Source: an uncultured bacterium (GTDB lineage Bacteria; Auribacterota; JACPWU01). Taken from it: 32,000 nucleotides of DNA. Numbering within the stretch: the first letter of the stretch is position 1; each line of letters begins with the position of its first letter. The stretch is from NCBI GenBank assembly GCA_964640155.1, contig CAZXEQ010000007.1, positions 90,001 through 122,000 of the forward strand, written 5' to 3'. The notes below the pieces were generated by a model. The model saw only the letters and a list, made by a program, of their open reading frames with translations, ran no database searches and was not told the DNA's origin. A program made the position numbers and the translations under genes. Of the stretch, positions 7,285 through 32,000 are shown piece after piece.

Positions 7285-8222
7285 TGGAAGCAGTCGGACA
7301 AAAACTAAAAAGTGCTAGAGAAGCAAAAGGACTTTCAATAGAAGAAGTTTCTAAAATGACCAAACTCTCTGAAAAGAGTTTGATTGCGCTTGAAAATGAT
7401 CGTTATGAAGAATTACCAGCATCTCCTTATATCAAGGGCTTTGTGAAACTTTATGCTCAATCGGTGGGTTTGGATCCTACGCAAGTGTTAGAGGCCTTTC
7501 GAAAAAATCAAGTTGGCGAGACGAAACAAGTTTTGGTCTTAGAAAAAGATAAAGGAGGGGAAGTTCCTCATCTTTGGGAAATTCTAGCGGCCTTGATTTT
7601 AAAGGGAATGAACTCTTTATATGCGTCTATCCGTCGCTTGGCACAGGTTTTATATGTTTTTATTTTGGGTTTGATTCGAAAAGTTCATCCTAAAGTCTGG
7701 CTTGCGATAGGAGGAGTCTTAGTCCTGATTATTCTGATTAAATGGATTTTTCCAGTCTCTTTACATAAATCTTCTCTGCCTCCGGCCATGGAAAAAAACT
7801 CTTCAAATCAACCTGCTGCATTGATTCAACCCACAGAGCCTGTTTCTTCAGAAGATACGTCTGTAGAGATCATTTCAATTCCAGAGTCTATTGATGAAAA
7901 ACCAGTAACAACTCCTGCGCCAGCAAAACCTGCGCAAAATTTATCAGCACAAACATCTGAATCATCGCTGGTACTTGTAGGACATGCTAAACAAGCCGTT
8001 TGGATTCGAGTGAAGCCTGACGGGGTTCGAGCGTTTGAAGGATCTTTGAAGAAGGGGGCTGTTCAGACTTGGAAAGCGAACCAATATTTTATTTTGAGAG
8101 TTGGAAATCCAGACTCGATCGAGTTTACTTTGGATGGTAAAGAATTAGGGCCTATGGGAATATCGGGCGGAAAAATCCGAGATGTGCGTCTGAGTAAGGA
8201 TGGATGGCATGTCAGAGATTAG
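7284..8222 (+). CDS. rodZ: RodZ-like cytoskeleton-associated membrane protein (HTH + TM + DUF4115-like domain)
   Basis: The ATG overlaps the ftsK stop (TAATG). It has an N-terminal XRE-type HTH (LKSAREAKGLSIEEVSKMTKLSEKSLIALEND), one TM helix (VWLAIGGVLVLIILIKWIF), a Pro/Ser-rich linker and a C-terminal beta domain (VWIRVKPDG...FILRVGNPDSIEFTLDGKELG). Confidence 0.8.
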   Translation: MEAVGQKLKSAREAKGLSIEEVSKMTKLSEKSLIALENDRYEELPASPYIKGFVKLYAQSVGLDPTQVLEAFRKNQVGETKQVLVLEKDKGGEVPHLWEILAALILKGMNSLYASIRRLAQVLYVFILGLIRKVHPKVWLAIGGVLVLIILIKWIFPVSLHKSSLPPAMEKNSSNQPAALIQPTEPVSSEDTSVEIISIPESIDEKPVTTPAPAKPAQNLSAQTSESSLVLVGHAKQAVWIRVKPDGVRAFEGSLKKGAVQTWKANQYFILRVGNPDSIEFTLDGKELGPMGISGGKIRDVRLSKDGWHVRD

Positions 8223-8347
8223 CAGTTCGATGAGAAAGCCTCATCTACTTCGTTCCACGCTTCACTCCTTTGTGCGACGTATAAGAAAACATACGTCTCC
8301 TCAGTCGCTTGCGTGCGCCTCGTATCTCAGGCTTTTTGATCAAACTG
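8223..8347. repeat. ~125-bp imperfect inverted repeat filling the rodZ-rimO spacer
   Basis: The outer arms are CAGTTCGATGAGAAAGCCTCATCTAC (8223-8248) and the reverse complement of 8322-8347 (CAGTTTGATCAAAAAGCCTGAGATAC), matching at 20 of 26 positions. The apex is a perfect 7-bp stem, GACGTAT/ATACGTC, around AAGAAAAC. Confidence 0.6.
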
Positions 8348-8372
8348 TAACAATTAAAATTGGTCAGTGAAT

Positions 8373-9743
8373 ATGCATAGTCAAAATTTGTTAGAAAAAA
8401 ATATTTCTAGTCCGATTAAAATAGGGATGATCAGCCTGGGTTGTCCAAAGGCTTTGGTAGATTCAGAAGTGATGGTGGGAACTTTAAAAGCCAATGACAT
8501 GTCTTTATGCAGAAATCCAGAAGATGCCGATGTTATTGTTATCAATACCTGTGGATTTCTTCAAGCTTCTACTCAAGAGTCAATGGATACCATCTCAGAG
8601 ATGGAGCTACTCAAAAAAAATGGCAAATGTCGTGGAATTGTTGTCGCAGGTTGTCTGGTTGAAAGATCCCCTGAACGAATTTTGAAAGAACATCCAGGTG
8701 TAGATGCTATTTTAGGTACTTCTCATTTTGAAGATGTTGCAGTTGCTGTTCAGAAAATTCTAAAAGGCGAAAAATTTAAAGCACTCTCGCGTCAAAAAAA
8801 TCTTTTATCCCATCGAAGTCCCATTGTTAGACTCACCGCTTCCCATTTTTCCTATGTCAAAATTTCAGAAGGATGTGATCACCCTTGTCGTTTTTGTGTA
8901 ATTCCTAGAATTAAAGGGAAGATGAACAGTCGTTCTATGGAAGATCTTGAATCCTCTGTGCGTACTTTGGCAGAGCAGGGAACAAAGGAAATCGTTTTAG
9001 TGGCTCAAGATTTAACAGATTATGGAAGGGATATTTATCAAAAACAAGAGTTGCCCGAACTCTTAAAAAAATTAGCAAAAATAGATGGTATTGAGTGGAT
9101 ACGTCTTCTCTATGCTTATCCTGCTTACGTGACAGAAGAATTAATCGAAGTCATGTCTGCAGAACCAAAAATTTGTAAATATTTAGACATGCCTCTTCAA
9201 CATGGTGATGATCAAATGCTGAAGGCTATGGCCAGACTTGGAACAAGAGATGATTATATAAAGCTGATTCAGAAAATGAGAGATAAAATTAAAGGCATGA
9301 CTTTTCGAACTACCTTTATTGTTGGCTTTCCGGGTGAGGAAGAAAAACATTTTAAAAATTTACTTTCTTTTATGGAAGAGATTCAATTTGAGCGATTGGG
9401 TGTATTTAATTTTTCTCAAGAGCCTGGAACTTATGCCTACAATTTAGAAAATCAGGTGAGTGAAGAGATCAAAGAAGAAAGACGTAATCGAGCCATGCAG
9501 CTTCAGCAGAAAATATCTAAACGTTTTACCAAAGCGTGGGTAGGAAAGAAGCTCAAGGTTTTGTGTGATCAAAGATCTCCAAAAGATCCTAAATTTATGG
9601 AAGGAAGAAGTTATTTTGATGCTCCAGAAATAGATGGGGCTGTTTTTATTCATGATCCGAAAAACCAACTTACTAAAGGGCAAATGGTGGAGACTCAAAT
9701 TGTAGAAGCACTGGAATATGATTTGGTGGGGGAAATACAGTGA
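8373..9743 (+). CDS. rimO: ribosomal protein S12 methylthiotransferase
   Basis: MTTase N-domain cysteines (ISLGCPKALVDSE, INTCGF, AGCL), a radical-SAM CDHPCRFC motif and a C-terminal TRAM domain. The track starts at GTG 8367. ATG 8373, two codons later, is preferred. Confidence 0.92.
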   Translation: MHSQNLLEKNISSPIKIGMISLGCPKALVDSEVMVGTLKANDMSLCRNPEDADVIVINTCGFLQASTQESMDTISEMELLKKNGKCRGIVVAGCLVERSPERILKEHPGVDAILGTSHFEDVAVAVQKILKGEKFKALSRQKNLLSHRSPIVRLTASHFSYVKISEGCDHPCRFCVIPRIKGKMNSRSMEDLESSVRTLAEQGTKEIVLVAQDLTDYGRDIYQKQELPELLKKLAKIDGIEWIRLLYAYPAYVTEELIEVMSAEPKICKYLDMPLQHGDDQMLKAMARLGTRDDYIKLIQKMRDKIKGMTFRTTFIVGFPGEEEKHFKNLLSFMEEIQFERLGVFNFSQEPGTYAYNLENQVSEEIKEERRNRAMQLQQKISKRFTKAWVGKKLKVLCDQRSPKDPKFMEGRSYFDAPEIDGAVFIHDPKNQLTKGQMVETQIVEALEYDLVGEIQ

Positions 9744-9790: not shown

Positions 9791-9825
9791 TACGCATGAC
9801 GTGCTACGCACTACGCCGTACGAGA
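9791..9825 (+). repeat. five tandem heptamers TACGCAT GACGTGC TACGCAC TACGCCG TACGAGA, ending 5 nt before ATG 9831
   Basis: Read directly from the sequence. These belong to the same KACGCAY family as 4916-4936. The track ORF start (GTG 9801) lies inside this array, which argues for ATG 9831 as the true start. Confidence 0.65.
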
Positions 9826-9830
9826 AAAAC

Positions 9831-10352
9831 ATGAAACTCTTCATATCAAGACTGATTTTAACATTCATTTCATTAGGACTTCTTTATCAAAAGTCTCTTT
9901 TTTTAAAAGAATTGGTTCTCATTCTTTTTATTGTCCAAATTGTTCTTTCCCTCTTAAGGTTTTATCCTTCTTTTCGAGAAAAAATCTTGTGTTTGCTTGC
10001 AGATAAAATTTTATTTGCTTCTGTTTTGATTATTTTGGCAGATCTTCATGGAATGCGAACAGGAATGGTTGCATGGATTATTGGTTGTGCTTTTGTACAT
10101 TCAGGTGTGGATCTTTTAGAGATTTCTTTGAATAAGTCGGTGGAGTTGGGACTTTCTTCATTTAAAAATTTTATTTCTTTGATATTAACTTTTTTTGCTG
10201 TTCTTCTTTTCTGTTTTCAAGGGATAATTCCTCTTCACATTCATGGGTATGCCTTATCCATCCTTTCTTGGATTTTTGCCGCTCTCTCAGGAATTTTTAT
10301 CCTGCAAGGTGTCCTTTCCTCAGGTTTTCGAAAATTGATACGCGAGGCATGA
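9831..10352 (+). CDS. polytopic membrane protein, possibly a degenerate CDP-alcohol phosphatidyltransferase (PgsA-like)
   Basis: About 173 aa with 5-6 hydrophobic helices. It occupies the position between rimO and pgpA where pgsA is often found. It keeps an ADK(I/V)L-like segment (LLADKILFASVLIIL, compare the PgsA sequence LDPVADKVLV). It lacks the DGxxAR part of the catalytic motif. Confidence 0.55.
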   Translation: MKLFISRLILTFISLGLLYQKSLFLKELVLILFIVQIVLSLLRFYPSFREKILCLLADKILFASVLIILADLHGMRTGMVAWIIGCAFVHSGVDLLEISLNKSVELGLSSFKNFISLILTFFAVLLFCFQGIIPLHIHGYALSILSWIFAALSGIFILQGVLSSGFRKLIREA

Positions 10353-12003: not shown

Positions 12004-12087
12004 CTGGTGACCTGTGACTGGTGACCTGTGACTGGTGACCTGTGACTGGTGACCTGTGACTGGTGACCTGTGACTGGTGACCGGAGA
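12004..12087 (+). repeat. 14-bp tandem array CTGGTGACCTGTGA: five perfect units plus one degenerate unit (CTGGTGACCGGAGA)
   Basis: Units start at 12004, 12018, 12032, 12046, 12060 and 12074. Each unit is two related heptamers (CTGGTGA / CCTGTGA), so TGAC recurs every 7 nt. The array ends 5 nt before the mnmA ATG. Confidence 0.95.
12083..12087 (+). promoter_or_regulatory. mnmA Shine-Dalgarno (GGAGA) created by the two substitutions in the last repeat unit
   Basis: GGAGA is followed by a 5-nt spacer (CTATA) and ATG 12093. The five upstream units read CTGTGA at the same position and contain no SD. Confidence 0.5.
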
Positions 12088-12092
12088 CTATA

Positions 12093-13157
12093 ATGAAAGA
12101 ACGAATTGTCGTAGGTATGAGTGGAGGAGTGGATTCCAGTGTTGCAGCCTTGCTTTTAAAAGAGCAAGGGTATGATGTCATTGGACTTACACTCAAGGTC
12201 TGGCTTGGAGACTGTTCTGATACAGGAGAGCATTCTTGCTGTGGTCCTCGAGCAGTAGAGGATGCACGATCGATTGCGCATCAATTGGGCATTCCATTTT
12301 ATGTGATGGATCACAAACAAGAGTTTCAAACGAATGTCATTGATTATTTCTGCCAGGAATATGCTTCGGGTCGTACGCCCAATCCTTGTGTTGTGTGCAA
12401 TCGAAAATTAAAATTTGGGAGTCTTTTGGATTTTGCAAAAAGCTTAGGTGCTTCAAAATTGGCGACAGGCCATTACGCAAAAGTGGAAAAAGTAGGCGAT
12501 GAATTTGCTCTTAAAAAAGCAGTTGATGAAAGAAAAGATCAGTCCTACTTTCTTTACACATTGACTCAGGAAAAGCTTTCAAACATTCTTTTCCCTTTAG
12601 GTGGATTTAGAAAAGAACAAATAAGACAATTAGCTCAGCAGGCAGGACTTCGCGTTTTTGACAAAAGTGACAGCCAAGAAATTTGTTTTGTTCCAGATGG
12701 GAAATACGTTAATTTTTTACAAAAAGTGGTTCCCGGACAATTTCAACCGGGAGAGATTAAAACTAAATCAGGTGAGGTTTTAGCAAAACACTCTGGGATA
12801 CAAAATTTTACCATTGGTCAGAGAAAAGGTTTAGGTGTAGCTTTAGGTAAACCTACTTATGTGATTCGTCTAGAGCCTCAAACCAATACAGTCATTGTGG
12901 GTGAAGAAGAAGATCTTTATTCTGGAAAATTTCTCGTCCAAGACATGCATTGGATTTCAAAAAAAACTCTCCAAAGTCAAATCGATTGCTCTGTTAAAAT
13001 TCGAAGTGCACATGAAGGAGCTTCTTGCGTAGTGAGATTTCTTGAAAATAAAACGGCAGAAGTTATTTTCAAAAAACCAGAAAAGGCTGTGACTCCAGGA
13101 CAGGCGGCTGTGTTTTATGATAAAGATCAAGTATTAGGAGGAGGCTTCATTGTTTAG
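12093..13157 (+). CDS. mnmA: tRNA-specific 2-thiouridylase
   Basis: PP-loop motif VVGMSGGVDSSVAA, cysteine motifs NPCVVCN and QEICF, 354 aa. Typical MnmA/TrmU. Confidence 0.95.
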   Translation: MKERIVVGMSGGVDSSVAALLLKEQGYDVIGLTLKVWLGDCSDTGEHSCCGPRAVEDARSIAHQLGIPFYVMDHKQEFQTNVIDYFCQEYASGRTPNPCVVCNRKLKFGSLLDFAKSLGASKLATGHYAKVEKVGDEFALKKAVDERKDQSYFLYTLTQEKLSNILFPLGGFRKEQIRQLAQQAGLRVFDKSDSQEICFVPDGKYVNFLQKVVPGQFQPGEIKTKSGEVLAKHSGIQNFTIGQRKGLGVALGKPTYVIRLEPQTNTVIVGEEEDLYSGKFLVQDMHWISKKTLQSQIDCSVKIRSAHEGASCVVRFLENKTAEVIFKKPEKAVTPGQAAVFYDKDQVLGGGFIV

Positions 13158-13184
13158 TTGCGAATGTCGATAAGAGGAAAGCAT

Positions 13185-13922
13185 ATGTCGAAAGTTATCA
13201 TAGTCATGCCTGCATATGATGCAGAACATACGATTGAAAAAACATATCGAGATATTCCAAAGGATTGTTATTCTGAAATCATTTTAGTAGATGATGCCAG
13301 TCATGATAGAACGGTTGAAGTTGCAAAAAAACTTGGGATTACAGTGGTTGTTCATTCACAAAATAAAGGCTATGGAGGTAATCAAAAAACTTGCTATCAA
13401 GAGGCTTTGGCTCGAGGCGCAGATTTTGTTGTGATGATACATCCTGATTATCAATATGACAGTCGATTGGTTCCTTTTATAACAGGTTTTCTTGCAACAG
13501 GAGTTTGTGATGTGATTTTTGGAAACCGAGTTCGTACCCGTAGAGAAGTGCTTCAAGGGGGCATGCCCATTTATAAATATATTGCGAATAGATTCTTAAC
13601 CATCTTGGCGAATATTGTTTTGGGGCAGAATATGGGGGATGGCCATAGCGGATTAAGAGCGTACTCGCGTAAAGTTCTGGAAACAATTCCCTTTAAAAAT
13701 AATGCAGATGATTATGCTTTTGATGCTCAGTTCATTACGCAATGTGCTTATTTTGGTTTTAAAATGGGGGATATTCCGGTTCCTGTACGTTATATGAAGG
13801 AATCTTCATCCATTAATTTTAGTAAAAGTGTCCAGTATGGATTTAAGACCTTATGGGTATTAATGCAATTTTTGCTGCAGAAATTTAAGCTGGCTCGTTT
13901 TAGCATTTTTCAAAAAGGTTAA
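13185..13922 (+). CDS. family 2 glycosyltransferase (GT-A fold, DPM1/ArnC-like soluble form)
   Basis: VIIVMPAYDAEHTIEKT ... IILVDDASHDRT ... VVMIHPDYQYD. No C-terminal TM helices. ATG 13185 has AAGAGGA 6 nt upstream. The track start, TTG 13158, abuts the mnmA stop. Confidence 0.8.
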   Translation: MSKVIIVMPAYDAEHTIEKTYRDIPKDCYSEIILVDDASHDRTVEVAKKLGITVVVHSQNKGYGGNQKTCYQEALARGADFVVMIHPDYQYDSRLVPFITGFLATGVCDVIFGNRVRTRREVLQGGMPIYKYIANRFLTILANIVLGQNMGDGHSGLRAYSRKVLETIPFKNNADDYAFDAQFITQCAYFGFKMGDIPVPVRYMKESSSINFSKSVQYGFKTLWVLMQFLLQKFKLARFSIFQKG

Positions 13923-13927
13923 ATCAA

Positions 13928-14887
13928 ATGAATATTTTGATCACAGGCGGAGCAGGTTTTATTGGCTCTTATTTATCAGAAGCTTTACTGAAAGAAAAGC
14001 ATACGGTTTTTGTTCTGGATGATCTTTCTACAGGAAGTATGGCCAACATCGAGCATTTAAAAAATCACCCTAATTTTCACTACACGATTAATACTATTAT
14101 GAATTATCAGCTTCTTTCTGAAATGGCGGATGCTTGCGACATCATTTATCATTTGGCTGCTGCAGTAGGCGTAAAGCTAATTGTAGATAGACCTCTTTAT
14201 ACCATTGATACGAATATTCGTGGTACTGAAAAGGTTTTGGAAGTAGCAGATAAAAAGAAAAAAAGAGTGGTAATCGCTTCCACTTCAGAAGTATATGGGA
14301 AAAGCGATAAAATTCCATTCAAAGAAGATGGAGATATGGTCTTTGGTCCAACGGTTTTGAGTCGGTGGAGTTATGCTTGTTCCAAAGCCATTGATGAATT
14401 TCTTGCTTTGGCTTATAGCCGAGAGAAAAATCTTTCAGTCATGATTGTAAGATTTTTTAATACGGTAGGGCCCAGGCAAACAGGTCGTTATGGAATGGTG
14501 ATTCCTAGATTTGTTCAGCAGGCTCTTAAAAACGAACCCATCACGGTGTACGGGGATGGAAAACAATCCCGTTGTTTTGGCTATGTGGAAGATGTTGTAA
14601 AAGCGGTGATGGATCTCTCGGGACACCCTAAAGCATGGGGACAAGTTTTCAATATTGGTTCTCAAGAAGAAATTTCTATTATTGATCTTGCTAAAAAAAT
14701 TATTCATATGACAGGAAGTAATTCAAAAATTCAGCACATCCCTTATGAGCAAGCTTATACAGAAGGTTTTGAAGATATGCAGCGCAGAGTGCCTGATGTT
14801 ACAAAAATTCAGAATCTCATCGGATTTAAACAAAAGACTTCACTTGAATTTATTTTAAAGAAAGTGATAGAATCATTTAGAAAGTAG
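13928..14887 (+). CDS. NAD-dependent sugar-nucleotide epimerase/dehydratase (UDP-glucuronate decarboxylase / ArnA-C-terminal-like)
   Basis: Extended-SDR motifs: ILITGGAGFIGSYL, STSEVYG and YACSK (YxxxK). HPNFHY and GP..LSRWSYA resemble decarboxylase-type members. The substrate cannot be assigned. Confidence 0.85.
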   Translation: MNILITGGAGFIGSYLSEALLKEKHTVFVLDDLSTGSMANIEHLKNHPNFHYTINTIMNYQLLSEMADACDIIYHLAAAVGVKLIVDRPLYTIDTNIRGTEKVLEVADKKKKRVVIASTSEVYGKSDKIPFKEDGDMVFGPTVLSRWSYACSKAIDEFLALAYSREKNLSVMIVRFFNTVGPRQTGRYGMVIPRFVQQALKNEPITVYGDGKQSRCFGYVEDVVKAVMDLSGHPKAWGQVFNIGSQEEISIIDLAKKIIHMTGSNSKIQHIPYEQAYTEGFEDMQRRVPDVTKIQNLIGFKQKTSLEFILKKVIESFRK

Positions 14888-15055
14888 GAATAAGTCTTAA
14901 AACGGTATTTTTCGATTGAAATAGCGATATTTTATACAAATTTGTACAATAAGGTATAACAAGCTCCTAATAAATAAGTTCTGGAAATTTGCATATTAGC
15001 AAAAGATATGCTATATTTAGGCAACAAGGGGAGCTTCCCAAAACATTCTCTAAAT

Positions 15056-15184
15056 ATGCAGACAGTCAGTCCATTTAACATATTGAATTGGAAGTGGTTA
15101 CGATCAGTCATTGTTTCGAGCATTTCTTTCTCGTTAATTGTCGATGCACCTGGTTTATCTTGGGAAAGAAGGGTGGAAGCTCAA
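15056..15184 (+). other. N-terminal signal peptide or signal-anchor of the giant protein
   Basis: MQTVSPFNILNWKWLRSVIVSSISFSLIVDAPGLSWERRVEAQ has basic residues (K, R) followed by a ~13-residue hydrophobic stretch and then a polar region. No lipobox is present. Confidence 0.5.
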
Positions 15185-18100
15185 ACCGTGTCAGCGTTTC
15201 CGCGCGTCGATATTACCTCTGTTTCTATTCAAGATTTAATCCTCAAAGAAATGAGAAAAGATAAGACCTTTAAGTCCTCATCCGGTCTTGAAGTTGTCCT
15301 CATTAGAGATTTACATGCGCAAGAAGAAGCCCAACTTAAAATTGCTCATTCTCTCCAACAAATCTATGAACAGTCTAAAGTTTCCAAGGTTTTCATAGAA
15401 GGAGCTGAAGGTCCTATTCGAACACTTCTTTATCAAGCTTTTCCCAATGAAGATGTCAGACGTAAAGTAGGCAGAGAGTTTGTGAAAGAGGGTTATTTAA
15501 CGGGAGCAGAACTTGCGGCAATTGAATTAGGTTTGGGCGGAAACATTGAGCTTTATGGAGCAGAAGACGCTAAACTTTATGTAGAAAATCTCAAAGCCTT
15601 TCGCCAAACACGTCTAAAGTATCAGACTCTCGAATCAGAAATCCAATCTCTCACAAATAAAATCAATTCTTTAAAAAAGACTCACTTCTCCCAAGAGCTT
15701 CAAAGTTTAGATGATTTAAAACAGGACTGGGAAAAAGAAAATGCAGATTTAGAAAAAATTGTAACTCAGATTCACGGTCTTCTTAAAGTAAATGGAAGAA
15801 CACTTGCCAAATGGAAAAATATTGAGGAATTATCATATATCATTGATTCCAATAAACAAGTAGATCAGGCTAGCGTTCAAAAGGAATTGACAGATTTAAT
15901 TACATTCTTACAAAAAGTTCTTTCTGGTGAACAAGTCAAAGAATTGATTAAGCAAACATTGGAGTATCGGCTTGGGAAAATTTCTAGTGCGCATTACTTG
16001 ACAAATTTAAAAGTAATATATCAAAAGAAAAATTCGGATAAGAACTTTGAAAAAGATTTTCCCTCCCTGCAGAGTTGGTTGTTTGTATCCCAAAGACAAG
16101 AAAAATTAAATTTAAATGAAGTGTGGAAAGAAGTTCAAGATCTTTTCGATACTTTGATTAATGAATATGCAATTCGAGAGAAAACAACCGAACTGGTCAA
16201 TTTAGATAAAAAATGGACTTTATTTCACAAGTTTTTTCAACTAGAACTTTCTCGAGCAGACTTACAACAGATTCAATCTTTAAAACTAGAACAGGAACTC
16301 GCTTCTATACATGAACGCGTACAAGCTTTAGCAGTCCCCGACATGGGGCAAGCCTCTCAGAAAAAGGGGTCTAACCCTCCAAAGATTCCTGAGAAACTTT
16401 TTGATTTGGTAAAAACAGCTCAAAATTTTTATACATTGGCTAAGAAGAGAGATGAAGTTTTAATTCATAAAACACTTGAAAAATTATCTGGACCTCAAGA
16501 TGCGGCTGTTTTGATCACGGGAGGTTTTCATACGGAAGGAATTCAGAAAATTTTGGAAAAGAAAAATATTTCTTATGTAACTTGGACTCCTCAGATTAAA
16601 GATCTTTCAAAAGAAAGCCCTTATGAAAAAATCATGATGGATGAAAGTTTTAATTTGGGTGAAAGTGAATTTTCTGAAAAGCGTTTGGTTTTGCGTGATG
16701 GATCTGATGAGATTCGAAAAATGTTGGGGATTCCTGTTCTTGCAGGAAAAATTTTGGAAGCTCTAAGTAAAGAACGGTATACAGAAGCGGTTGAGCATCT
16801 TTTAAGTATGATGGTTACGGAGGGGAGGGAAACGGAGTTTAGAACTGTAAATGAAATGTTAAATCAATGGTTTCGACCTAGGATGAACGAGGATGAAGCT
16901 TCTCGCATAGCACGAGCCGCGGCTCGTGGATTTCCTCAGGAAGTTTTTTTGGATATGGATCGACTTGTTGATCCTGCCAATCGAGCACAACGAGATCTGG
17001 CTTTGAGGGTGGTTAAAACTGCTTTTGGCGATACTTATCCAGGTCTTGTTGCTTTAACACAAACTATTTTAAGAAGAGCAGAAGGAAAGGATGAAGGTAA
17101 TAAAGAAATTAGAGCGTTGGAAATTTTCTCAAAAGTTAAGGAGCATTTGTCTGCTCCCAAGGTTGAGGAGAGAAAAGTCTTTGACTTGTTGAAAGGTGTG
17201 GAGAGTGAGCTAAAGGAAACAGCAGGTGTAAAAAGAGCAAATGCTCTTTTTTTTGATTTTCTTTCTCATAAGGCTACAAAATTCTTGGATGAAGCAGCCG
17301 GTTTATCTTTAATGGAAACAGTCGATAAAGATTTTAAAAAAAGAAAAGCAGACGTTTCGGCGAAATTAAAATTAGCCGAACTAGCCATAGCTGATTTTAA
17401 AAAGTTTGAAAGAATAGGAATATCTTTAAATAGGCCTCAGGAAGAAATCTTACGTGGTCTTAAGGCACGTGTAGAAAATTTAAATAAAGCATTGGAAGAT
17501 TATGAACTTGCCCTTGTTCAGGTAAATAAAGGATCTCAAGCAAATTTCTCATTTGTGGAGGGCGAAGCTGCTCTTATTCAACCCCATTCCCCAACATGGG
17601 CTGGGAATTTAATCTCAAAAATTGTTGATGCAAAATATCGCTTAGTTTCTGATACGGTTTCTCAAGAATCTTCTTTGCGTGAGCGAGTTGACCGAGTAAC
17701 GAATTTTTATGAATCTGCTGTAGAGAGAAGTAATGATACAGCTGCAACTTCTGTGGGGAGAGAAGTTTCTAAGCGGCTTGCACATGCCTATTTGAAGCTT
17801 TTAGTAAAAGCATTGCTTGAGTTGGCAAACGCTCCAAAAGGAGATGAAGAGGCGGAAGTTTTAAAAGAGCTTCGTACGGGAATTCGCCTTTTAAAGGGAC
17901 CTATTGGCCTTTTGCATGCTGAATCAAATGAAGGGGAAACGGTTCAATCTTTCTTAGAAGTTTGTATGCTCACGTTTGGTAGAGTGCTGGATGATATTGA
18001 GGCGAGATTAGGGGATGCAACCGCTAAGGATGATACCATTGTAGGAAATATTCTACTTGATCTCGCTAATTATATCGAAGAAGTGAAGGTGTTAGATGTT

Positions 18101-21100
18101 TATAAAACAGGAAGTAATGGTGTTGCATCTTTTCTGGAAGGTTCTACTAGAACTTTTGGAACTTTGAGGGGTGCCGCTCAAGAGAAAGCCGGGAGTTCTT
18201 CTCCTAACAATAGATTGGCTGGGACAGCGCATTTTGCAGCTCTTGTTGGATTCTCTCCTGTGGCTGGTAGGTCGTCTACATCTGATAGAGATTTAGGTAT
18301 TGTTATTGAAGATGATTTAAGTGGTGCTGATGTTTCTGGTGCGCCACGGGTTGTTGCGATGGCAACAGGATTTGATGATGAAGATGCTGAAGGAAAAGTC
18401 ACTGTACCTGCCTCTGCTCCTGTTTTTGAGAGTTTATTGCCTGATGAGTATGTGAGGTCGTTACCGCCGGATGCGCCAATGGGTTCTTCACGTGTGGCAG
18501 TAGGGCCTCCCGCTTTACCAGCTGCGTCGGCACCGGTAGCAGATGCTTCGTCAGATGGAGAAGAATTTGTCATTGATGACCTTGATGCATACATGGCGGA
18601 AACTTCTGATGCTGCTGCGGCTAAACGTCCGGCCATTCCTCCACCTGCGCTGCTTGTTCGCGGTTCAAGCGTGAGGCCTCCGGCTTTGCCACCTGGAGAA
18701 GCTAGAGCTACGACTCGTTCTGATAGACCTGCTATGCCTCCTCCTGTTCCGAGTGGAACAGTTCGTGCTCCCTCTCCGGCATCTGGGGCAAAAGCGCCTG
18801 TAGCAATAGCTGATGCATCTGCGGCTGACGATGAGGTGGAGTTTGAAGAAGCGGAGGGAGAAGGTATAGTTGTTGAAGATGATGTTTTAGAAGCAGAGGT
18901 ACTACAGAGTCTTGTGCCACCTGAACCTGATAAACGAGAAGTTGCAGGGCGGTCATCTGCAGCTTCTATTCCTTTAGATTTGAGAAGGATGAAAGAAGCT
19001 CCTACCATATCTCCAAAGGATGTTAAACCTCTGACAGGAGGTGATGGAGGAGAAGTAGAAATTGTAGCGGTCGGTAAAGATGGTGAGACAGTTCTTTCAT
19101 TAGGCGAGCCTAAAGTTAACCGTGTTCCTTCGCGACCAGCTCCACCTCTTCCTTCTGCCCAATCTGCTTCTGACCGTCCAGCACCTTTTCCGGAAGCTTC
19201 TCAGAGAGAAGGTGCTCTGCCTCGTGCTGCAGATGCTCCTACGGCTGTAGCAGTTCCTGCACCAGTTGGTGTACCTGCTCAAGAAGTAACTTTAACAGGG
19301 AAGGCTTTGCTGGATTCTCTTGCTGCTAAAATTCCCGTGAATGTTCCTAATGAGACAGAACTTTTAAGAAGTGATGATGACAGTCCGATGCGAGCTATAG
19401 CTAAGTTTTGTGGTGCGTTTACTCGAGATGCTTTGTTAGGAGATAGAGAAGAAATTTATCGCGAAGACGGCATTTGGGATCATTGTTGGCAAATAATGAT
19501 GGCTCGCGCACAGCTTCATGTAGCAAGGCGTGAATGGGATAGTGCAGTTAGGATTTATTCTGGTTCTATTACAGTGCTTGATAGCATGGAAAAAGCTCAT
19601 TCAACACTTATCGGTAAAGAAGGTGTGGTGGTTAGTAGAGAGGAGATTGGAAGAGTTGAAAAGACTTTTACAGACAAACAAGGAAATATAGAAAACGGGC
19701 GCAGAATTTTGGCTATTACCAAAACATTTTCTGCTGAACCTTCGGCAGAAGGAGTTTCTTTAGAAACAGTAACTCTTGCAAGTTTGGAAGCTTTGTATAC
19801 AGGAGATGAGGCTCCCTTAACAACTGTGACAATGGATGCTAGTCAATTTGAAAATTTGAAAACTCAGCTGATTGAATTTGTAGATCGATATTTAGTTCGA
19901 GAATTGGCTTATGCCTACATTAGATATTCTTTTGAAGATGCACAGACCTTGCTTTTAGCAGGTTTTCGTTTAATAGAAAATTTTGTAGTAATGGGGAATA
20001 GATTGGGAATAGAGAGTTCATCTTTAGAAGGTTTAGCACAAGTAGCAGATAAGCTTTGTGAAGGGTCTCCGTCAGATCAACTCAGAGTGGAATGGTTGGA
20101 TCAATTAGAAGAGCTTTCATTGCCTGATAATAAGAAAAGAGCGCTTTACGATGAGCAAATTGGTTTTTATAAAGCAGCTGAAAGAGTGGTTTCTTTTTCT
20201 AAACGTTCAGAGTTAGCACTAAAAATAAGAGATTTGGAGGCTACAAAAGAGGGAGTAGGGATAAGATTATCAGAAATGCCACCTCTTGTGCCAGCAAGCC
20301 CTTCTGCACTAAGGGGTCCAACTCCTACACACGGTTCAATACCTCCAGGAATATTTGTAGCTAAGGCTCCAGAAGCGGCTCCGGCATCTGGCGATGCTAA
20401 TCCTTCAGTATTTTTCCCAGGAGGACCTGCTGCAGGTAGTGCAGCAGAAGGAAGTGGAACTATAGAGCTTTCTGTGCCAGATTTTCCTCTTGAGTCATTA
20501 TCAGTTCCAGGAGTAGCAATGCCTGCTGTGCCAGCACCGGTAGCAACAAAAGTAGAAGGCGCTCAAAAACCTCCAGCAGTTCCAACTAAAGGTCCTAAAG
20601 GCGTTGTTCCAAGAGCAAGGCCATCTAAACCACCGGCTGCCAGGTCTACAAAATTATCTACAGGTGCTGTTGCTGCACCTCCACCTATTCCTATTGATGC
20701 TGTCCTAGAAGTTTCAGGAGCAGTACCGTTTCCTCAACCACCTCCTTTGCCTGCTGCACCGGCAGTTGCATCTGCGTCAGCTGTTCCCCCTGAAGCAGCT
20801 ACAGCAGTAGCAGCAGCTAAACCGGCAGAAGATGCACCTGAAGAACTTTCAAGCTCAGCTTTTGTGGTTGATCAACTCCCTGGAGCACCTGCAGAAATGT
20901 CTACACCATCAGATTCCTTAGAAGCTCTTGCTGCTCGAATTCCCAAAAGTCTTCCAAATGAAGCTGAGCTTTTGAGAGATGATAAAGATGGACCATTAGT
21001 AGCTGTGAGAGCTTTTTATGCGGAGTTTAATAGGGTGCCTCTTAAAGTAAAGAGTCGAGAGAGTATTTATGAGAGAGGACGTATTTTTGATCAAATGTGG

Positions 21101-24100
21101 AATATTTTGATGGCTCGTGCAGAACTTCACGTTGCAAGAGGTGAAAGATCTAGGGCTTTAGAAATTTATGATGAATCTGAAAAAATTTGTCGTGGTATGG
21201 AAGGAGCACACGGACTACTTGTGGTAAGGGCAGAAGGTCTAGCACTTGCAATATCAATGGGGGAAATTAATCCGGGTGATCTTGGTATTGGTAAAGATGA
21301 AAAATCGTTTTCTGCCAAACTTACAGATCTAGAAAATAGGCGACGTGCTTTAGCTGCTGTTCCTGTAGTAGATGAACCTACAGAGCTTTCTGCAGAACTT
21401 GTTATTTCTCGACCTTCAGCTGTACCGTCAGGTCTACCAGCAGCACCAGGTTCTGCTAGAGCGAAACCTAGTGGTAGGACAGCATCGGAACGTGCATCTC
21501 TTCGTCCACCTGCTCCGCCTGCTGCAATAGCTCCGGCATCCGTGGCAACACAAGCAGCTGTACCTCCACCTGTGCCAACATCTGCACCGCGTGCTGTTCC
21601 TCCAGCAAAAGGACCTCCTGCTGTTCCTGCAGAAATATTGGCGGCTGGTATGGGAATTACTCTGGCAGATGTTTCGAAAATGGGTTCGTCCGATGAAGCA
21701 GTCTTGGATGCATCCGATGTAGAATCTCAAAGTTGGCTTGAGGAAAAGCTTCCTTCTGTTGCAGGAGCTTTGGATTGGGTTGAAGAAAGACGAATACAAA
21801 ATTTGGTTGATACGATGGATGCAGAAAAGTTTGTACAAGCTTTACAGGGTTCCCAGAGCGATCAAAAAAGAGCTTTTAGTGCGATGCGACGAATAAAATT
21901 AGAGACAGAAAGAGGACAAGCCATTTTAGATGGGGCTTTTGCTCTTATCAAAAATATTGCAGAGGATACACAGCGTAATCGGCTTTATCTCATTTGTTAT
22001 AATTTTATTTTTGAATATGCAAACGCAAACAAATTATGGGAGCTTGCAGCCAAATACGCTGCAAGCTCTTTAAATACTCTTTATTATCCTCCCAAAAGCA
22101 TTATGGAGTTTTCTTTGTTGCTTGTTCAGATTTTGGGCCAGGCGGGGGCCAGAAAAGCAGGTTTGACACTGGCTTTTTATAGCGCGCTTCAAAGACAAAA
22201 ACCATCGAGAGAGAAAAAAATAGCTTTAAGAAATTTTTATGCTCTTCTTGTCATTCTGGCTTGGAAAGAAAGCGATTGGACTGCAATTTCAAGTTTTGTT
22301 GAGCGGGCTATCGCAGATGATTTAGAAATAGCCTTTTTTCTTATTCAAAATATTTCAAAATATAAACATAAAGATATCAATGTAAAGGCTTTATGGTGGA
22401 GTTTTGCGCAGGCTGTCACAAAGACTCTAGACTCGAATCAGGATGTTTCAGAAGAAATTATTTTTAAAACAATAGAAGCTTTGGGCGTGCAAGAAGAACT
22501 AAGTAATCTTCTGATGAGCGCTTATTATAAAAGACTTAAAAGACGGATTAAATCTGAACCTGACTCTCAAGGAACGAAAGATGCGTTAGGACGATATTTT
22601 ATTGTTTTTACAAGAATGGCGTTAAAAGCAAATGACATTGAACTAGCAATTCATTTGGCGAATCGAGCTATTGAAGATGGACTGATCGAATATGCACACG
22701 AGCCTGTGGAGCTTCTGGGAAGAAGCAAGTTCTTTAAATCTAAAAAAGTTCAGGATTTGATTGCGCGTTTTCATGGCGAGATTGTAAAAATTGCTGATGA
22801 AAAAGAAAGGGTAAAGCAGTTACGTCTTTTTTATACCGCTATAATTAGGCATGCAATTGATCATAAGGCTTGGGATATTGAAGTGGCATACTGGGATAAA
22901 TTGAAGGGAGAACATTTAATATCGGCCCTTGTTTGTTCTGTGTATTTCTTAGGATCTTCTAAAAATGCTCGAGATCTTTTCTTTAGCATTTATTATAGAC
23001 TTGATGAGAAAAAAAAGCTTGATGTGGAGCTGTCGGTCGGGAATATTTTTAAGACAATAGATACATATCTTCAAGTGAATAAGCGAATAGAGGATGATCA
23101 AATAAGGAAAGTGGTTGTTTTAAGAATGGCTGTTACGCTGCTGTGTTCTCCTGAACTGGATAAGGAAAGTCGTTTAACAGTTCAGTTGCTGTTAGAACTA
23201 ATAAAAACATTTGATAAATATACATGCAATTTTACTCCTAAAGATGCTAAGGAGTTAGGCCCTATAGAAAAAGCAGTGGGGGCTGTGATGGCTTTAAATT
23301 TTAAGTTGAAGAAAGTTTCAGGAGAAAGAGATGAGATTAAACGTTTAAAAGAAATACAAGAATTTACCAATATTGCTTTTGCGTATTTGAAAATTGCAAA
23401 AGAACTTCCTGGTACTGTTCCTGGTGAAGTTCAGAATATTTTAGTCGGGGAAATTGAAGGTCATCTTGAAAATGCTTTAGTAAGTTATAGAAAAGCTCTG
23501 GCTGCTACATATGAGAATGTTTTTTCTTATTCGGAATCTGTCTTAACTTCTGCAAAAACTCTTTTGGATGAAGGAGATGAACTTTTCAAAAATCTTCTAA
23601 GATATCAATGGAAAGGGATATCTTTTGACGAAGCCAAATCGCATGCGCTCTATAAATTGGCTGTTTCTTTGAATGAGGAACGAGAGGAGCTCAAAAAGCG
23701 TCTTAACACAAGAATATTGGAACTCCAGGTAAGTGAAATTAGAAGGGGCTTTTCGAGGGCTAATTCAGAATCTTTTGATGGAAATTGGAGTCGCTACGAT
23801 AGAGACTTGAAAGTTTTAAGAGATATTGTTTTGCACAGCACAAGTAGTGATCCGGATGTTGCCAAAGAAGCTTTGGATGTTTGTATGGATCAAATGGAGT
23901 TTCTATTATCGCTAAGTTCGACTTTGACTGGTGAGCACCGCACAGAAGGTATTCGCTGGATAGGACAACAGATTAAGGAGTTATATACTCTTGAAGGATA
24001 TGTAGGTAGGGATGCTTCTATAAAGAAACTGTTTGGTTTTAGACTTTTAGCTATGAGTTTAGATTTTTCTACACAGGCAGATCTTGCAGCAGCGGAAGTT

Positions 24101-27100
24101 ACTCAAACTCAGATGAATGGTCTTTTAGAAAGAGCAGACTGTGACATAAACGAATTAGAAAATGTTTTAGCTGGATTAGAACTTTTTGCTGCTGGCCTAG
24201 CAAGTGTTCAAGATAACAGTCGTTTTGAAAATGCCAGAACTCTTACATTGGGTTTGGCTAAAGCTGTTTTAGAAAAGGTGAAGGCATTAGATTCTTCTTC
24301 TGCATTAGTGGGAAGAACAACAAGCTTGATTGCACGATTCTCCGATAATCTTCTTGAAGCATTGCAAAATGCTTTATCTCTTGAGGCTCTTCAAGCCATG
24401 CCTCAGGAGAGTGCATTGGAAATAATAAAATCCATTTATGAAGGAGATCATGCACTTTTAAGAAAAGAGGGTTCTGCTGACGAGGCTTCATATCTTGCTT
24501 TACTTGCAAACGTTGCAATTGTTGTTAAAAGCTTTATTATTCCTCAGTTGCAAGAGGCTTGTAACCAAAGGGATTGGACGAGGGCAGGGTCTTTGCTATC
24601 TATCACGTTTGGTTTGATTTCTGGTTTTAGAAAATTTCATGCAGATCGAGGTTTCTTAGATGGAAAATTTTCTGTATTAAATGATTTGAGAGGTCTATTT
24701 ACAAAAGAAAGTAAACCGTATAGCGAATATCTTGAAGCTTCTCTTTTGGGGGCAGAAAACTTTTTATCCTTAGAACGATATTTAAATCTGTTTTTAGACT
24801 TTTATCAAAAGGCTGCTGCGGCTTTCCCCTCAAAAGATATGGAGAAAATACGAGGCAAATTTTCATTTTTCTCAGATGTCTTGAGAGATTGTAAGGGGGA
24901 TTTTAGTGGAGTGAATGTGAAGATTATTGCCGAAAAGATCTTTCAACGCCTTTCGAGTCTTAAAGATCAGGATATCGATGTATGGGAAATAGCGATTGTT
25001 TTTACAATGGCTCGACTATGTGATGGAGCAACAAAGGGGCTTAAAGACGTTTCGTTAATGGAACAGATTCAGGGTTTGATTCATCAAACTGCTAAGCTTT
25101 TAGATGAAAAACTTGGCTCTGCAGGAATAACCGATCGGGAGAAAGGATTGGGGAAGGGAGTTACCTATTTTGCTCAGATTGAGGAATCTCAAGGTAATAT
25201 TCGGCTGTTTGATAGTACGGGAAAAGTTGTTTATTTGGATAGAGCTCTTCGTGGTTTAGAGGTGGCAGCTAAAAGGACTCAAGCTAGGGGCCAAGTGTTA
25301 GAGATTTCGAATGTCTTAGTCAGTCGTGTCGGGGACTGTTTTTTTCAAAGAGAGGGGTTGGAGACTTATAGACGTGCGGAAGCTTTGTTAGGAAGTATTT
25401 TGGATGAGTTGCCTGAAGGCGATGCAAATAAGGGAGCATATCAAAATTTAAAAGATAGAATACATCGTATTGTAATTTCAAGTGAGATTGCGGATTTTGT
25501 GGGTATAGGTCAATTACTTTATGCATGTGATTTTTCGGATCTTTCTGGATGGAGAAATCTTTATGAGAGGAGAAATCGTCTTGCTGGAGTAGACATTCCT
25601 GATGATGAAGATAGAACTTTGCATCTTCATATTTTATCTGGACAGTTGGATCGTGTTTATACAGAACTTTCCAAAAAAATTGCTCAAGTTGCTGTTCCTG
25701 TTGAGGGTGTTTATCCTCAACGAGTTGATATTTTAGTTGAAATGGGATTGGGCTTAGCGAAAGCCTTTAAATCTAAATACGAAGCATACGATCTTCATGA
25801 AGGTGAGATAGCAGGAAATATTTCTATTTTTGTCGACCAATTTTTTAATGAGAAAGTCAAAGTGATTTTGTCCGCGATGGAAACTCAAGCACAGGCGTTG
25901 CTTGAAACAGACTTGTTAAGAGCTCAAGCAATTTATGCAAGAATGCTTCGCATGTGCAATCAGGCTTTGACAGCAAGTCCTTCTCTGTTTGAGTCTAGTT
26001 CAGAAAATTTTAAATTAATGAACCGCATTCGAGCGCTTTCGGTCAGACCACAGGCTGAAAATGAATATGGAAAGGCCATTGCTTTACTCAAAGAAATAGA
26101 AGCTTTGGATATGAGAATAGAAGAGGATAGAGTTGTTGCTAATAAAAAACTTGTTGAGGCCGAAAAATTGTATGAAGCGATAAAGGCTCCTTGTTCATTT
26201 CCGGGAACTCTTGATCTTTTGGCTGAATTGAAACATGCACGTGTTCTTGTAGCTATTGGGAATTCTCTTAAGGCTTTACAGGAGGAAAATGAAGAAGAAG
26301 CTCAAAATCAATGGATAATTGTTAATAGAAATTTGTTTGCAGAAAGTTCGGGCTATGGCTTAAAAGTTGTTTTGAAAGATTTTGTTTTAGCTCAGTGTCA
26401 GTTAGCTCGTTTGGACGACAATGTTTCATCCTTAATTCAAGTGGGAAAATTCGCTAGCTTGGGCTTTGAGTTGATTTCAGTTTTTCGAAAATTTTGCCTG
26501 ACTCCCGGACTTGTTGGGGGACCTTCTCCCGAGCATCAGGCAGAAGTTTTTGCTCAAGGGGATGTATTTTACGATTTAGCACGTGTTTATGAAGCGAGAC
26601 TTCTTGAAAAAATTCAAAATGAAGGAGATCCTGTTTCAGCTTTAAAAATGTATGAAGAATTGGAAAGATTTTCTCGAAGTGGGGCAGAGTCCGTTTCGGC
26701 ACCATCTTTAGTTGCTCGCTTAGATGCACAGGCTAAACGAGCAGATCTCATGAGAGCACTTCTTGCTTCTCCTATAGATTCGACTGTTGCAGAGCGTTTT
26801 CAAGATTGGATAAGAAGCGATGATTTTACACTGGACGATGAACCTTTTACAGCAGCTTTCTTAGCTCAATGGGCGAATGCTGTGAGCGCCGAACAAGATG
26901 TTGCAGCTTATGAAGCAGGTCAGACACATATCATTGAGACAATAGATATTTTACAAGAACGGTTATGCGCTTTGATTCCAGGATCAACACCGAGTCTTAT
27001 ACTCACTTCTTTTAGGGTAGTTCTTCAAATTGACAAAGCTTTAAGAGCTTACGAGAGATCTAAAAACGGCGGTAGTCAAGCAGGAGATGTCGAAAAATTA

Positions 27101-32000: not shown

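Follow-up and report, generated by a model that had tools for sequence, protein, structure and literature searches.

Giant genes are a recognised puzzle of Omnitrophota and related uncultured phyla, where they account for several percent of small genomes. In three works (Seymour et al. 2023, PMC10066038; West-Roberts et al. 2023, 10.1101/2023.11.21.568195; Nielsen & Lui 2026, 10.64898/2026.06.07.730766, with 'multi-enzyme' and 'Pfam-dark' classes), the giant open reading frames (ORFs) of Omnitrophota encode proteins with few domains, signal peptides and membrane helices, and their functions are treated there as poorly understood. The N-terminal regions of giants are generally without identifiable domains, according to West-Roberts et al. 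(10.1101/2023.11.21.568195). The giant gene considered here lies in a stretch of 32,000 nucleotides (nt), called the window, of contig CAZXEQ010000007.1 (assembly GCA_964640155.1), whose host is assigned to an uncultured Candidatus Auribacterota (PVC group) bacterium. It runs on the forward strand (+), as do all features below unless stated otherwise, from window position 15008 past the end of the window, and it encodes 9,702 amino acids (aa). It shares with more than 10,000 protein clusters a single conserved N-terminal domain, probably catalytic, of which no description was found in the text of these works that was covered, nor in Pfam or NCBIfam.

The gene resembles the Omnitrophota/PVC giants in its size of 29,109 nt (an ORF above 20 kb is the criterion in PMC10066038), in its few domains and poor conservation, and in the combination of a signal-peptide-like N terminus with four to five membrane helices. 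Most of its homologues by the N-terminal domain come from Omnitrophota. They have cargo in common with that given by Nielsen & Lui (PF02878-80, PF08323, PF00069, PF02518, PF00583 and PF04055), and on these Pfam assignments their cargo is that of the 'multi-enzyme' class. The gene differs in its host phylum, which is Auribacterota, and in its cargo, which is kinase-like and PP2C-like. Its 9,702 aa also lie below the catalogue thresholds of Nielsen & Lui (at least 10,000 aa) and West-Roberts et al. (more than 30,000 aa). The part of the protein that was read comprises 8,981 residues (aa 1-5664 and 6386-9702), leaving out the 721 aa between them (aa 5665-6385, window-equivalent 32001-34162). Pfam finds in these residues none of the SecA-DEAD, C39/S8 peptidase, dockerin, TSP3 or glycosyl hydrolase/transferase domains of archaeovorin/dockerin-type giants.

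For Auribacterota-related genomes there is a published count of proteins above 5,000 aa (PMC12057145). Among them, the secreted protein of about 6,000 aa of Ca. Menyafoubacter (PMC12057145) has the broad lineage, the giant size and a Sec signal peptide in common with the present one. It has its own CASH beta-helix, polysaccharide lyase, Rhs and adhesin domains and is without a membrane helix, whereas Pfam finds none of these four kinds of domain in the residues read here. The RTX/Ig-repeat adhesins (LapA, SiiE type) and the non-ribosomal peptide synthetase (NRPS) and polyketide synthase (PKS) megasynthases share size alone. Pfam finds no Ig, cadherin, RTX, condensation, ketosynthase or carrier-protein domain in the same residues, and there is no tandem repeat structure, as an earlier note on this DNA, made from the window alone, had already observed for the Ig, cadherin, RTX, NRPS and PKS types. 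That note had gone on to propose an uncharacterised class of giant protein. Since giant envelope ORFs of this kind have been published, and the N-terminal domain occurs in 10,320 cluster representatives, the claim of a new class was overstated. The part of it that stands is that the family is uncharacterised: its defining domain is covered by no model in Pfam or NCBIfam, nor is it described in the available text of Seymour et al., West-Roberts et al. and Nielsen & Lui.

Frame +2 is free of stops from ATG 15008 to 31999, a run of 5,664 codons (5,648 from ATG 15056). The upstream in-frame stop is TAA 14975-14977, and the longest open run in the frame is 5,674 codons; residue numbers are counted here from ATG 15008. 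The base composition predicts about 399 stops in such a stretch (log10 P of none about -180), and there are 412 and 531 in the remaining forward frames. Coding potential, a check that the earlier note had proposed against the upstream housekeeping genes, was scored in 1.5-kb blocks as the log-odds of in-frame versus off-frame codon usage in ten of those genes. The score of frame +2 is positive in 12 of 12 blocks (+0.23 to +0.51), the other two frames score negative, and the G+C content at third codon positions (GC3) is 0.19-0.29 against 0.27 in the ten genes. The 17-kb frame is a genuine protein-coding gene, and the window holds its 5' 58%. The rise in G+C at 17-22 kb, where G+C at the first and second codon positions is high while GC3 is low, comes from the Pro/Ala-rich segments and not from foreign DNA. 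The largest competing ORF (276 aa, 18178..19008 on the minus strand) lies inside Pro/Ala linker 1, whose GC-rich codons keep the antisense frames open; it is a shadow, as in the earlier note, and not a gene. Three further alternative ORFs in the region are of 121-134 aa. The giant gene is absent from the program-made ORF track because ORFs that leave the window are not listed in it.

The remainder of the gene is found in a second assembly. The Logan contig SRR8893623_18027 (36,978 bp), located by an exact-protein look-up of the upstream epimerase, matches window 12053-24887 without a single mismatch in 12,835 nt, and one gene of 9,702 residues is called on it, beginning at the position of ATG 15008. 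The window proteins are also encoded on a 185,047-bp NCBI contig. The 3' end was reached by way of cinA, the gene that follows the giant gene in the orthologue P0001 described below: a search with it led to the cinA product of the window genome (P0201) and from there to locus L082 (contig positions 22111-36978). In this locus the final 3,317 codons of the giant gene end at its stop (L082 9952-9954, window-equivalent 44114-44116), and cinA, a LigT-like gene and recA come after it. The gene, of which window 15008..32000 holds the first 5,664 codons, has 9,702 codons from ATG 15008 or 9,686 from ATG 15056, and 29,109 nt including the stop. The earlier note's single gene is thus real and much longer than the part that the window shows. 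Its position on the chromosome is fixed, between a sugar epimerase gene and cinA. The last 200 aa of the window's part of the protein had no match when GTDB species genomes were scanned, and the JGI metagenome contigs contained no exact match to a 60-mer.

Two syntenic orthologues, sought in related genomes together with their lengths as the earlier note had suggested, accompany the gene. Scanning of the GTDB species genomes with a six-sequence alignment of the N-terminal domain (A3) yields 412 encoded relatives. The best of these, L003, belongs to Candidatus Auribacterota bacterium SZ_szas25bin.51, where the gene order is iscS-mnmA-GT2-epimerase-giant and the neighbours are 88-94% identical to those of the window; the giant itself is 80-85% identical across the N-terminal ~520-560 residues. 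The next best relatives come from the same metagenome-assembled genome (MAG) and from Ca. Theseobacter exili (Auribacterota), and most of the remaining loci listed are from Omnitrophota MAGs. Over the first 519 codons dN/dS against L003 is 0.11 (dS 0.79), compared with 0.04-0.07 in neighbour genes, which indicates that the giant gene is under purifying selection, apparently somewhat relaxed relative to its neighbours. The second orthologue, P0001, is more distant and has 6,482 aa (Logan SRR22387960, locus L002); its neighbours are 54-79% identical, in the order ftsK-rodZ-miaB-orf-pgpA-iscS-mnmA-epimerase-GIANT-cinA. The two proteins align at 55% identity over aa 24-690 and are colinear at 36% over aa 7443-9702, with more than 70% over roughly the last 300 aa, and the middle gives only scattered, non-colinear matches at 20-33%. 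Both ends are thus under constraint, with expansion and turnover in the middle (9,702 versus 6,482 aa).

Several further observations concern these genomes. The GT2 gene between mnmA and the epimerase (window 13158-13922) is present in L003 as well and absent from L002. The L003 epimerase (2653-3612) is open for just 195 codons as threaded, which may reflect a frameshift or stop in the MAG, through a pseudogene or an assembly error, or an artefact of the tblastn coordinates. There are at least four to five paralogues of the N-terminal domain per genome, represented by L003, L005, L007, L011 and L048 in one Auribacterota MAG and by L004, L006, L008 and L010 in Ca. Theseobacter exili. The paralogues in both genomes are 26-79% identical to the window sequence, and by these counts the family is multi-copy within genomes.

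The start codon is probably ATG 15056, which the earlier note had also preferred. In L003 an in-frame stop stands at window codon 12 (FP*YSLNMQTV against FPKHSLNMQTV; window 15008-15058, L003 3842-3900), and therefore the first start in L003 is the Met equivalent to ATG 15056. The protein would then have 9,686 aa, and the called ATG 15008 would be 16 codons too early. A strong Shine-Dalgarno-like sequence, AAGGGGAG, is located at 15026-15033; lying 22 nt upstream of ATG 15056, it is too distant for a typical ribosome-binding site.

An artefact, be it an assembly chimera, a set of ordinary genes that sequencing errors have joined, or non-coding sequence open by chance, has only a negligible chance of accounting for these observations. 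Even though metagenome-assembled sequence can be chimeric, and most of the giant protein is without homologues, a frame of this length would be open by chance with a probability of about 1e-180, the coding statistics are uniform and native all along the ORF, and the second assembly agrees without a mismatch over 12.8 kb and likewise has a single gene there, called at 9,702 aa. Collapsed repeats are no concern, since nucleotide tandem repeats in the ORF are absent save for one 39-bp array, and no repeats able to collapse are present. The syntenic orthologues, moreover, are single ORFs under purifying selection.

The N terminus of the protein has the features of a signal peptide. From the probable start (15056..15181) the sequence reads MQTVSPFNILNWKWLR, then SVIVSSISFSLIV, then DAPGLSWERRVEA before QT, with a hydrophobic core at 15098-15142 whose best 15-mer scores 1.87 on the Kyte-Doolittle scale; assignments of signal peptides and membrane helices are hydropathy heuristics throughout. 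This segment corresponds to the hydrophobic anchor of the earlier note. A strongly hydrophobic 12-mer precedes the domain in 161 of 181 family members (median start residue 15), and in 158 of those members the N-side of the segment is the more positive. Judged by hydropathy and charge, the pattern is that of Sec signal peptides.

The conserved domain follows at aa 60-570 (15185..16717), as delimited by invariant residues, profile matches and the predicted model. No other part of the protein is widely conserved. Its profile, A1, consists of 22 sequences with the window sequence as the first row and was searched against 1.84 billion cluster representatives. With A1, AlphaFold2 gives a model (pLDDT 85.4, pTM 0.77) in which a six-stranded alpha/beta core is split by a helical insertion of about 300 aa, in agreement with the bilobed His-motif domain recognised earlier. 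The invariant residues are H103, Q109, E131, G132, G162, G184, Y191, F474, R481, G505, G506, H508 and P528; D101 is nearly so (A1, A2), and the window sequence carries every A1 invariant residue (H, E, R, GGxH). An extension at aa 571-700 (16718..17107) is conserved in the closest relatives only: BLASTP alignments to P0001-P0005 reach query residues ~675-696, and the others end near 550.

Matches to A1 number 10,320 cluster representatives at an expectation value (E) of 1e-3 or less and 7,368 at 1e-30 or less, and in all 150 of the matches listed the domain lies within roughly the first 560 residues, at ~45-540. The first protein search returned 50 matches of 2,864-7,655 aa, with homologue E-values down to 6e-241. 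In 49 of the 50 the aligned query residues are ~50-700 and the alignment starts within ~160 residues of the match's N terminus, the exception being P0049, which aligns from query residue 266 only. The database names of these 50 proteins follow their cargo: phosphomannomutase, protein kinase, 6-phosphofructokinase, TIM barrel, GNAT, radical SAM, methyltransferase and HEAT. On these matches the large-to-giant proteins form one very large family that has as yet no name; it is commonest in Omnitrophota and extends to Auribacterota and to MAGs labelled Elusimicrobia. Its predicted plan is a Sec-type signal peptide, a conserved domain of ~490 residues and a long, fast-evolving, lineage-specific cargo. 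The homologue search missed the 9,702-aa protein, although the collection includes its neighbours, and the longest match in either protein search has 7,655 aa. The libraries may lack very long proteins, and the upper length range of the family is therefore probably under-sampled.

The closest described relatives of the domain would be the TIKI/TraB-PrgY/GumN/ChaN/erythromycin-esterase superfamily, in which the same residues recur in the same order: an acidic-x-His pair, a Glu, an Arg and a His, with spacings of 28 and 27-29 residues. In the window protein, motif 1 is R-D101-L-H103-A-Q at the end of strand 2 (15305..15322), with the His invariant and the Asp nearly so. Motif 2 is F-I-E131-G-A-E-G (15392..15412), whose Glu and first Gly are invariant, the Glu coming 28 residues after H103. 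Motif 3, K-K-R481-D, and motif 4, T-G-G-F-H508-T-E-G (together 16442..16540), have an invariant Arg, Gly, Gly and His, and R481 is 27 residues from H508. The corresponding residues are E3900-x-H3902, E3930, R4001 and H4030 in RRSP (PMC6254334), and H85 and E113 in Bcr135, with the same 28-residue spacing as His3902-Glu3930 in RRSP (PMC6254334). The D-x-H of motif 1 answers to the E-x-H of TIKI enzymes (PMC6254334). The domain also resembles RRSP, which lies within MARTX, in being placed inside a giant secreted protein (PMC6254334). An alpha/beta core with a parallel sheet would be a further likeness, and the differences are the ~300-aa helical insertion between the two halves and the Asp that replaces the first Glu. 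ChaN is a lipoprotein and Tiki is extracellular, and the predicted location of the domain is likewise non-cytoplasmic.

Matches to the superfamily, in sequence as in fold, stay below threshold. No TIKI-superfamily family (Pfam PF04187, PF01963, PF05139 and others) matches the domain significantly. Several family members have sub-threshold Pfam matches to ChaN (PF04187, labelled 'Tiki superfamily'; 0.031), DUF5694 (0.024) and DUF5682 (9e-5 to 3.5e-4), and all of these involve the R...GGFH stretch and the corresponding end of the Pfam model. Profile searches of the PDB with the whole domain and with the insertion-deleted core returned nothing relevant, and Foldseek of the domain model against the PDB gave no match at E of 1e-3 or less. 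The Foldseek list consists mostly of coiled coils because of the helical insertion; once coiled coils and helical bundles are set aside, HopBA1 (5T09, probability 0.66), itself a TIKI-superfamily structure (PMC6254334), leads the PDB matches. A putative TIKI/TraB/ChaN/EreA-like hydrolase fold is, with reasonable though far from firm confidence, the assignment that the motifs and these matches point to.

The cargo behind this domain includes kinase-like and phosphatase-like domains. The protein-kinase-like domain (aa 4490-4830, 28475..29497) has its motifs in the order of Hanks-type kinases such as PknB (Gly-rich loop, Lys, HGD, DF(G/S), LTG): LGGGLGEV, the Gly-rich loop, at 28556-28579, FVLKLK at 28625-28642, VVHGDFDESS at 28982-29011, VTDFSLSE at 29051-29074 and MLKILTGKV at 29402-29428. 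It differs from those kinases in having Ser in place of the catalytic Asn and about 100 residues between DFS and LTG. The two matching regions of P0001 have the canonical HGDMHGDN...DFG and HGDFHEVN, and the window domain may be a pseudokinase. With a three-sequence profile, all 60 of the PDB matches listed (of 96) are protein kinases, the best being of Bud32 type (E 9.8e-4), with PknB at 0.02. The earlier recognition of a kinase-like domain in the window is in line with this result and with the motif order. NCBIfam gives a weak match to Bud32 (E 0.015) and Pfam none, a PDB sequence search with the kinase region alone found nothing, and an AlphaFold2 model from the three-sequence alignment (pLDDT 35) was discarded. 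Since aa 4440-5200, which comprise this domain and two repeat modules, have no match at E of 1e-3 or less among 5.8 billion proteins, this part appears effectively orphan. Beyond the window, L082 encodes further Pro/Ala linkers and the C-lobe (aa 6386-6500) of another kinase-like domain, so the protein carries at least two kinase-like domains.

Two PP2C-like domains are also encoded beyond the window. Domain 1 (aa ~7145-7440) has sub-threshold Pfam scores of 18.9 and 18.3 bits (PF13672/PF00481) and PstP as its top PDB match (E 0.006-0.008). Domain 2 (aa ~7909-8108) scores 25.3 bits with PF13672 (PP2C_2), above the cut-off of 24 (E 1.3e-5). To this extent the pair resembles bacterial PP2C phosphatases such as PstP. 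The kinase-like and PP2C-like domains differ from Hanks-type kinases and PP2C in being embedded in a chain of ~1 MDa and in scoring about at or below the family thresholds. An FHA domain considered at aa ~6975-7135 has no Pfam support. Four to five hydrophobic membrane helices follow at aa 8496-8699, and the C-terminal ~1,000 aa have no detectable relatives besides P0001 and the C terminus of P0004; a PDB sequence search with the C-terminal 1,003 aa found nothing. Residues 9135-9355 resemble the C terminus of the family member P0004. The last ~300 residues (L082 9000-9951, aa ~9400-9702) are the best-conserved part, above 70% to P0001, for example in DEMKDAMILKFNSEQ..QPNALTQVM.FASY, and they have no Pfam or PDB relative. 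A candidate zinc-protease motif in the C-terminal region (L082 ~7400-7440, aa ~8855-8862) was rejected: LVHEFHYAD (HExH) stands against LHHEQAHAE (HExxH) in P0001 and is not conserved.

Between the N-terminal and kinase-like domains lie three Pro/Ala linkers, which are the Pro-rich tracts noticed earlier. Linker 1 (aa 1030-1430, 18095..19297; local G+C 0.44-0.46) is probably disordered, judged by its composition, which also defines linker 3 (aa 2109-2230, 21332..21697); linker 2 (aa 1750-1965, 20255..20902) has as much as 19% Pro and 19% Ala. The repeated modules of the earlier note are four copies of a unit of ~120 aa, with 27-47% mutual identity, detected by tile BLAST and a four-copy hidden Markov model (HMM). 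Copy 1 (aa 1431-1561, 19298..19690) reads LAxxIPxxxPxxxxLLRxDxDxP, then a TPR-like helix pair, and is 47% identical to copy 2 (aa 1966-2108, 20903..21331). Copies 3 (aa 4961-5075, 29888..30232) and 4 (aa 5079-5203, 30242..30616) follow the kinase-like domain. The four-copy HMM finds no module in 198 other collected proteins, including the orthologue P0001. The long TPR-like regions claimed earlier did not hold up: no TPR array exceeds the Pfam threshold (TPR_14 19.3 against 23.5 bits, TPR_4 16.3 against 27), and the TPR matches are only sub-threshold ones inside copy 2 (TPR_14) and copy 4 (TPR_4 and TPR_14).

The centre of the protein, aa 2231-4489 (21698..28474), is an orphan stretch of ~2,260 aa with a Leu/Ala/Glu-rich, helix-favouring composition. 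It has no Pfam, NCBIfam or PADLOC match above cut-off and no phmmer match in the PDB at E of 1 or less, and overlapping 1,200-aa tiles of the window protein likewise give nothing above cut-off in Pfam, NCBIfam or PADLOC. A weak internal repeat relates aa 3171-3219 to aa 3787-3838. The NCBIfam match to anti-phage ProA (window 23630-24360, aa ~2875-3117; E 2.6e-4, 18.5 bits against a cut-off of 1500) was treated as helical-repeat noise, the anti-phage defence models of PADLOC having no match in 7 tiles. A possible membrane helix at aa 3160-3178 was also set aside: it passes on the Kyte-Doolittle scale, fails on a Hessa-type scale, and contains Asn and Lys.

Taken together, the architecture somewhat favours a giant envelope-anchored protein with an exported TIKI-like head and variable cargo. 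The signal peptide would carry the N terminus across the cytoplasmic membrane via Sec. The conserved domain would be a TIKI-type hydrolase with an active site made up of D101-x-H103, E131, R481 and H508, residues conserved across the family whose catalytic role is proposed here, and it would act on the outer face, either in self-processing or on an envelope or partner substrate. Thousands of residues of linkers and helical modules come next, and the sequence shows among them at least two kinase-like domains, of which the window copy is degenerate, and, past the window, two PP2C-like domains. The membrane cluster at aa 8496-8699 would fix the protein in the membrane, with the well-conserved C-terminal domain of ~1,000 aa following it, and the whole may serve as an envelope-anchored scaffold for contact with other cells or surfaces, as the literature on related giants suggests.

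Topology is the main weakness of this model, and several points weigh against it. No membrane helix is found on a Hessa-type scale between the signal peptide and aa 5664; with a cleaved signal peptide, the kinase and PP2C modules would therefore lie outside. Such domains need ATP and Mn/Mg and are normally cytoplasmic; outside the cell there is no ATP. Nielsen & Lui faced this topology paradox too, with a protein of 147 kaa (thousand aa; 10.64898/2026.06.07.730766). In P0001 about three membrane helices (aa 839-910) come immediately behind the N-terminal region, a place at which the window protein has none; the topologies of the orthologues may differ, or crude hydropathy scans may miss helices. 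The 721 aa at aa 5665-6385 are outside the sequence covered. The role in cell contact, finally, is borrowed by extrapolation from work on Omnitrophota, for whose giants a function in envelope contact is proposed (PMC10066038; 10.1101/2023.11.21.568195).

The leading rival, which is unlikely, is a giant transmembrane Ser/Thr signalling receptor that would relay an envelope or contact signal by phosphorylation. Only the two ends, namely the conserved domain and the final ~1,000 aa, would be outside, and the kinase-like and PP2C-like modules would be cytoplasmic, between membrane passes. The co-occurrence of kinase-like and PP2C-like domains fits this arrangement, and the succession of PP2C domain 2, a linker and the membrane cluster resembles the layout of PstP, a membrane-anchored bacterial PP2C phosphatase. 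The helices of P0001, placed between its N-terminal and kinase-like domains, would make the latter cytoplasmic. The window protein, however, has no such helix as far as aa 5664 on the Hessa-type scale, the sole Kyte-Doolittle candidate being the Asn- and Lys-containing aa 3160-3178, and its kinase copy is without the catalytic Asn; the 721 uncovered residues bear on this model as well. A MARTX-like polyprotein or multi-effector delivery protein, in which a TIKI-like protease would cut the exported chain so that the cargo acts in or on a host or prey cell, is very unlikely. In its favour, the family combines a constant N-terminal module with highly variable cargo of normally cytoplasmic enzymes (phosphomannomutase, phosphofructokinase, TIM, PGK, kinases, GNAT, radical SAM). 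TIKI-fold endopeptidases do occur inside giant secreted toxins, for example RRSP in MARTX (PMC6254334), and a predatory or episymbiotic use is proposed for Omnitrophota giants (PMC10066038; 10.1101/2023.11.21.568195). Against it, no cleavage sites or toxin domains were found, no secretion-system genes adjoin the giant gene, whose neighbours are housekeeping genes, the C-terminal membrane cluster suits retention in the producer's membrane, and the protease activity is a prediction. It is also distinctly unlikely that the domain is the hallmark of an unrecognised multi-phylum system, in which a Sec-exported TIKI-like hydrolase would head thousands of giants in Omnitrophota, Auribacterota and Elusimicrobiota. 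Its head would be a common processing or anchoring module, and cargo of cytoplasmic type would work outside the producer or inside a partner cell; this part of the idea is just as doubtful.

The neighbours of the gene in the window are mnmA, the GT2 glycosyltransferase gene and the NAD-dependent epimerase gene (12093..14887), which were identified by Pfam and whose synteny identifies the orthologues. Rfam finds no family at the gathering score over window 1-32000, the rpsO-pnp and ribF regions included. An ORF of 183 aa between miaB and pgpA (window 9801-10352) is 54% identical to its counterpart in the P0001 genome, which has no Pfam family on record.

For the biology of giant genes, the locus is a well-bounded example of 9.7 kaa from a different phylum, with its start and stop codons placed, a pair of syntenic orthologues and the mark of purifying selection, and it is small by the standards of the published giants. 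It sharpens the topology paradox of these proteins by placing kinase and phosphatase domains behind a signal peptide. Its compact, confidently modelled N-terminal domain, with the invariant His, Glu, Arg and His, would offer a small, expressible handle on the whole class.

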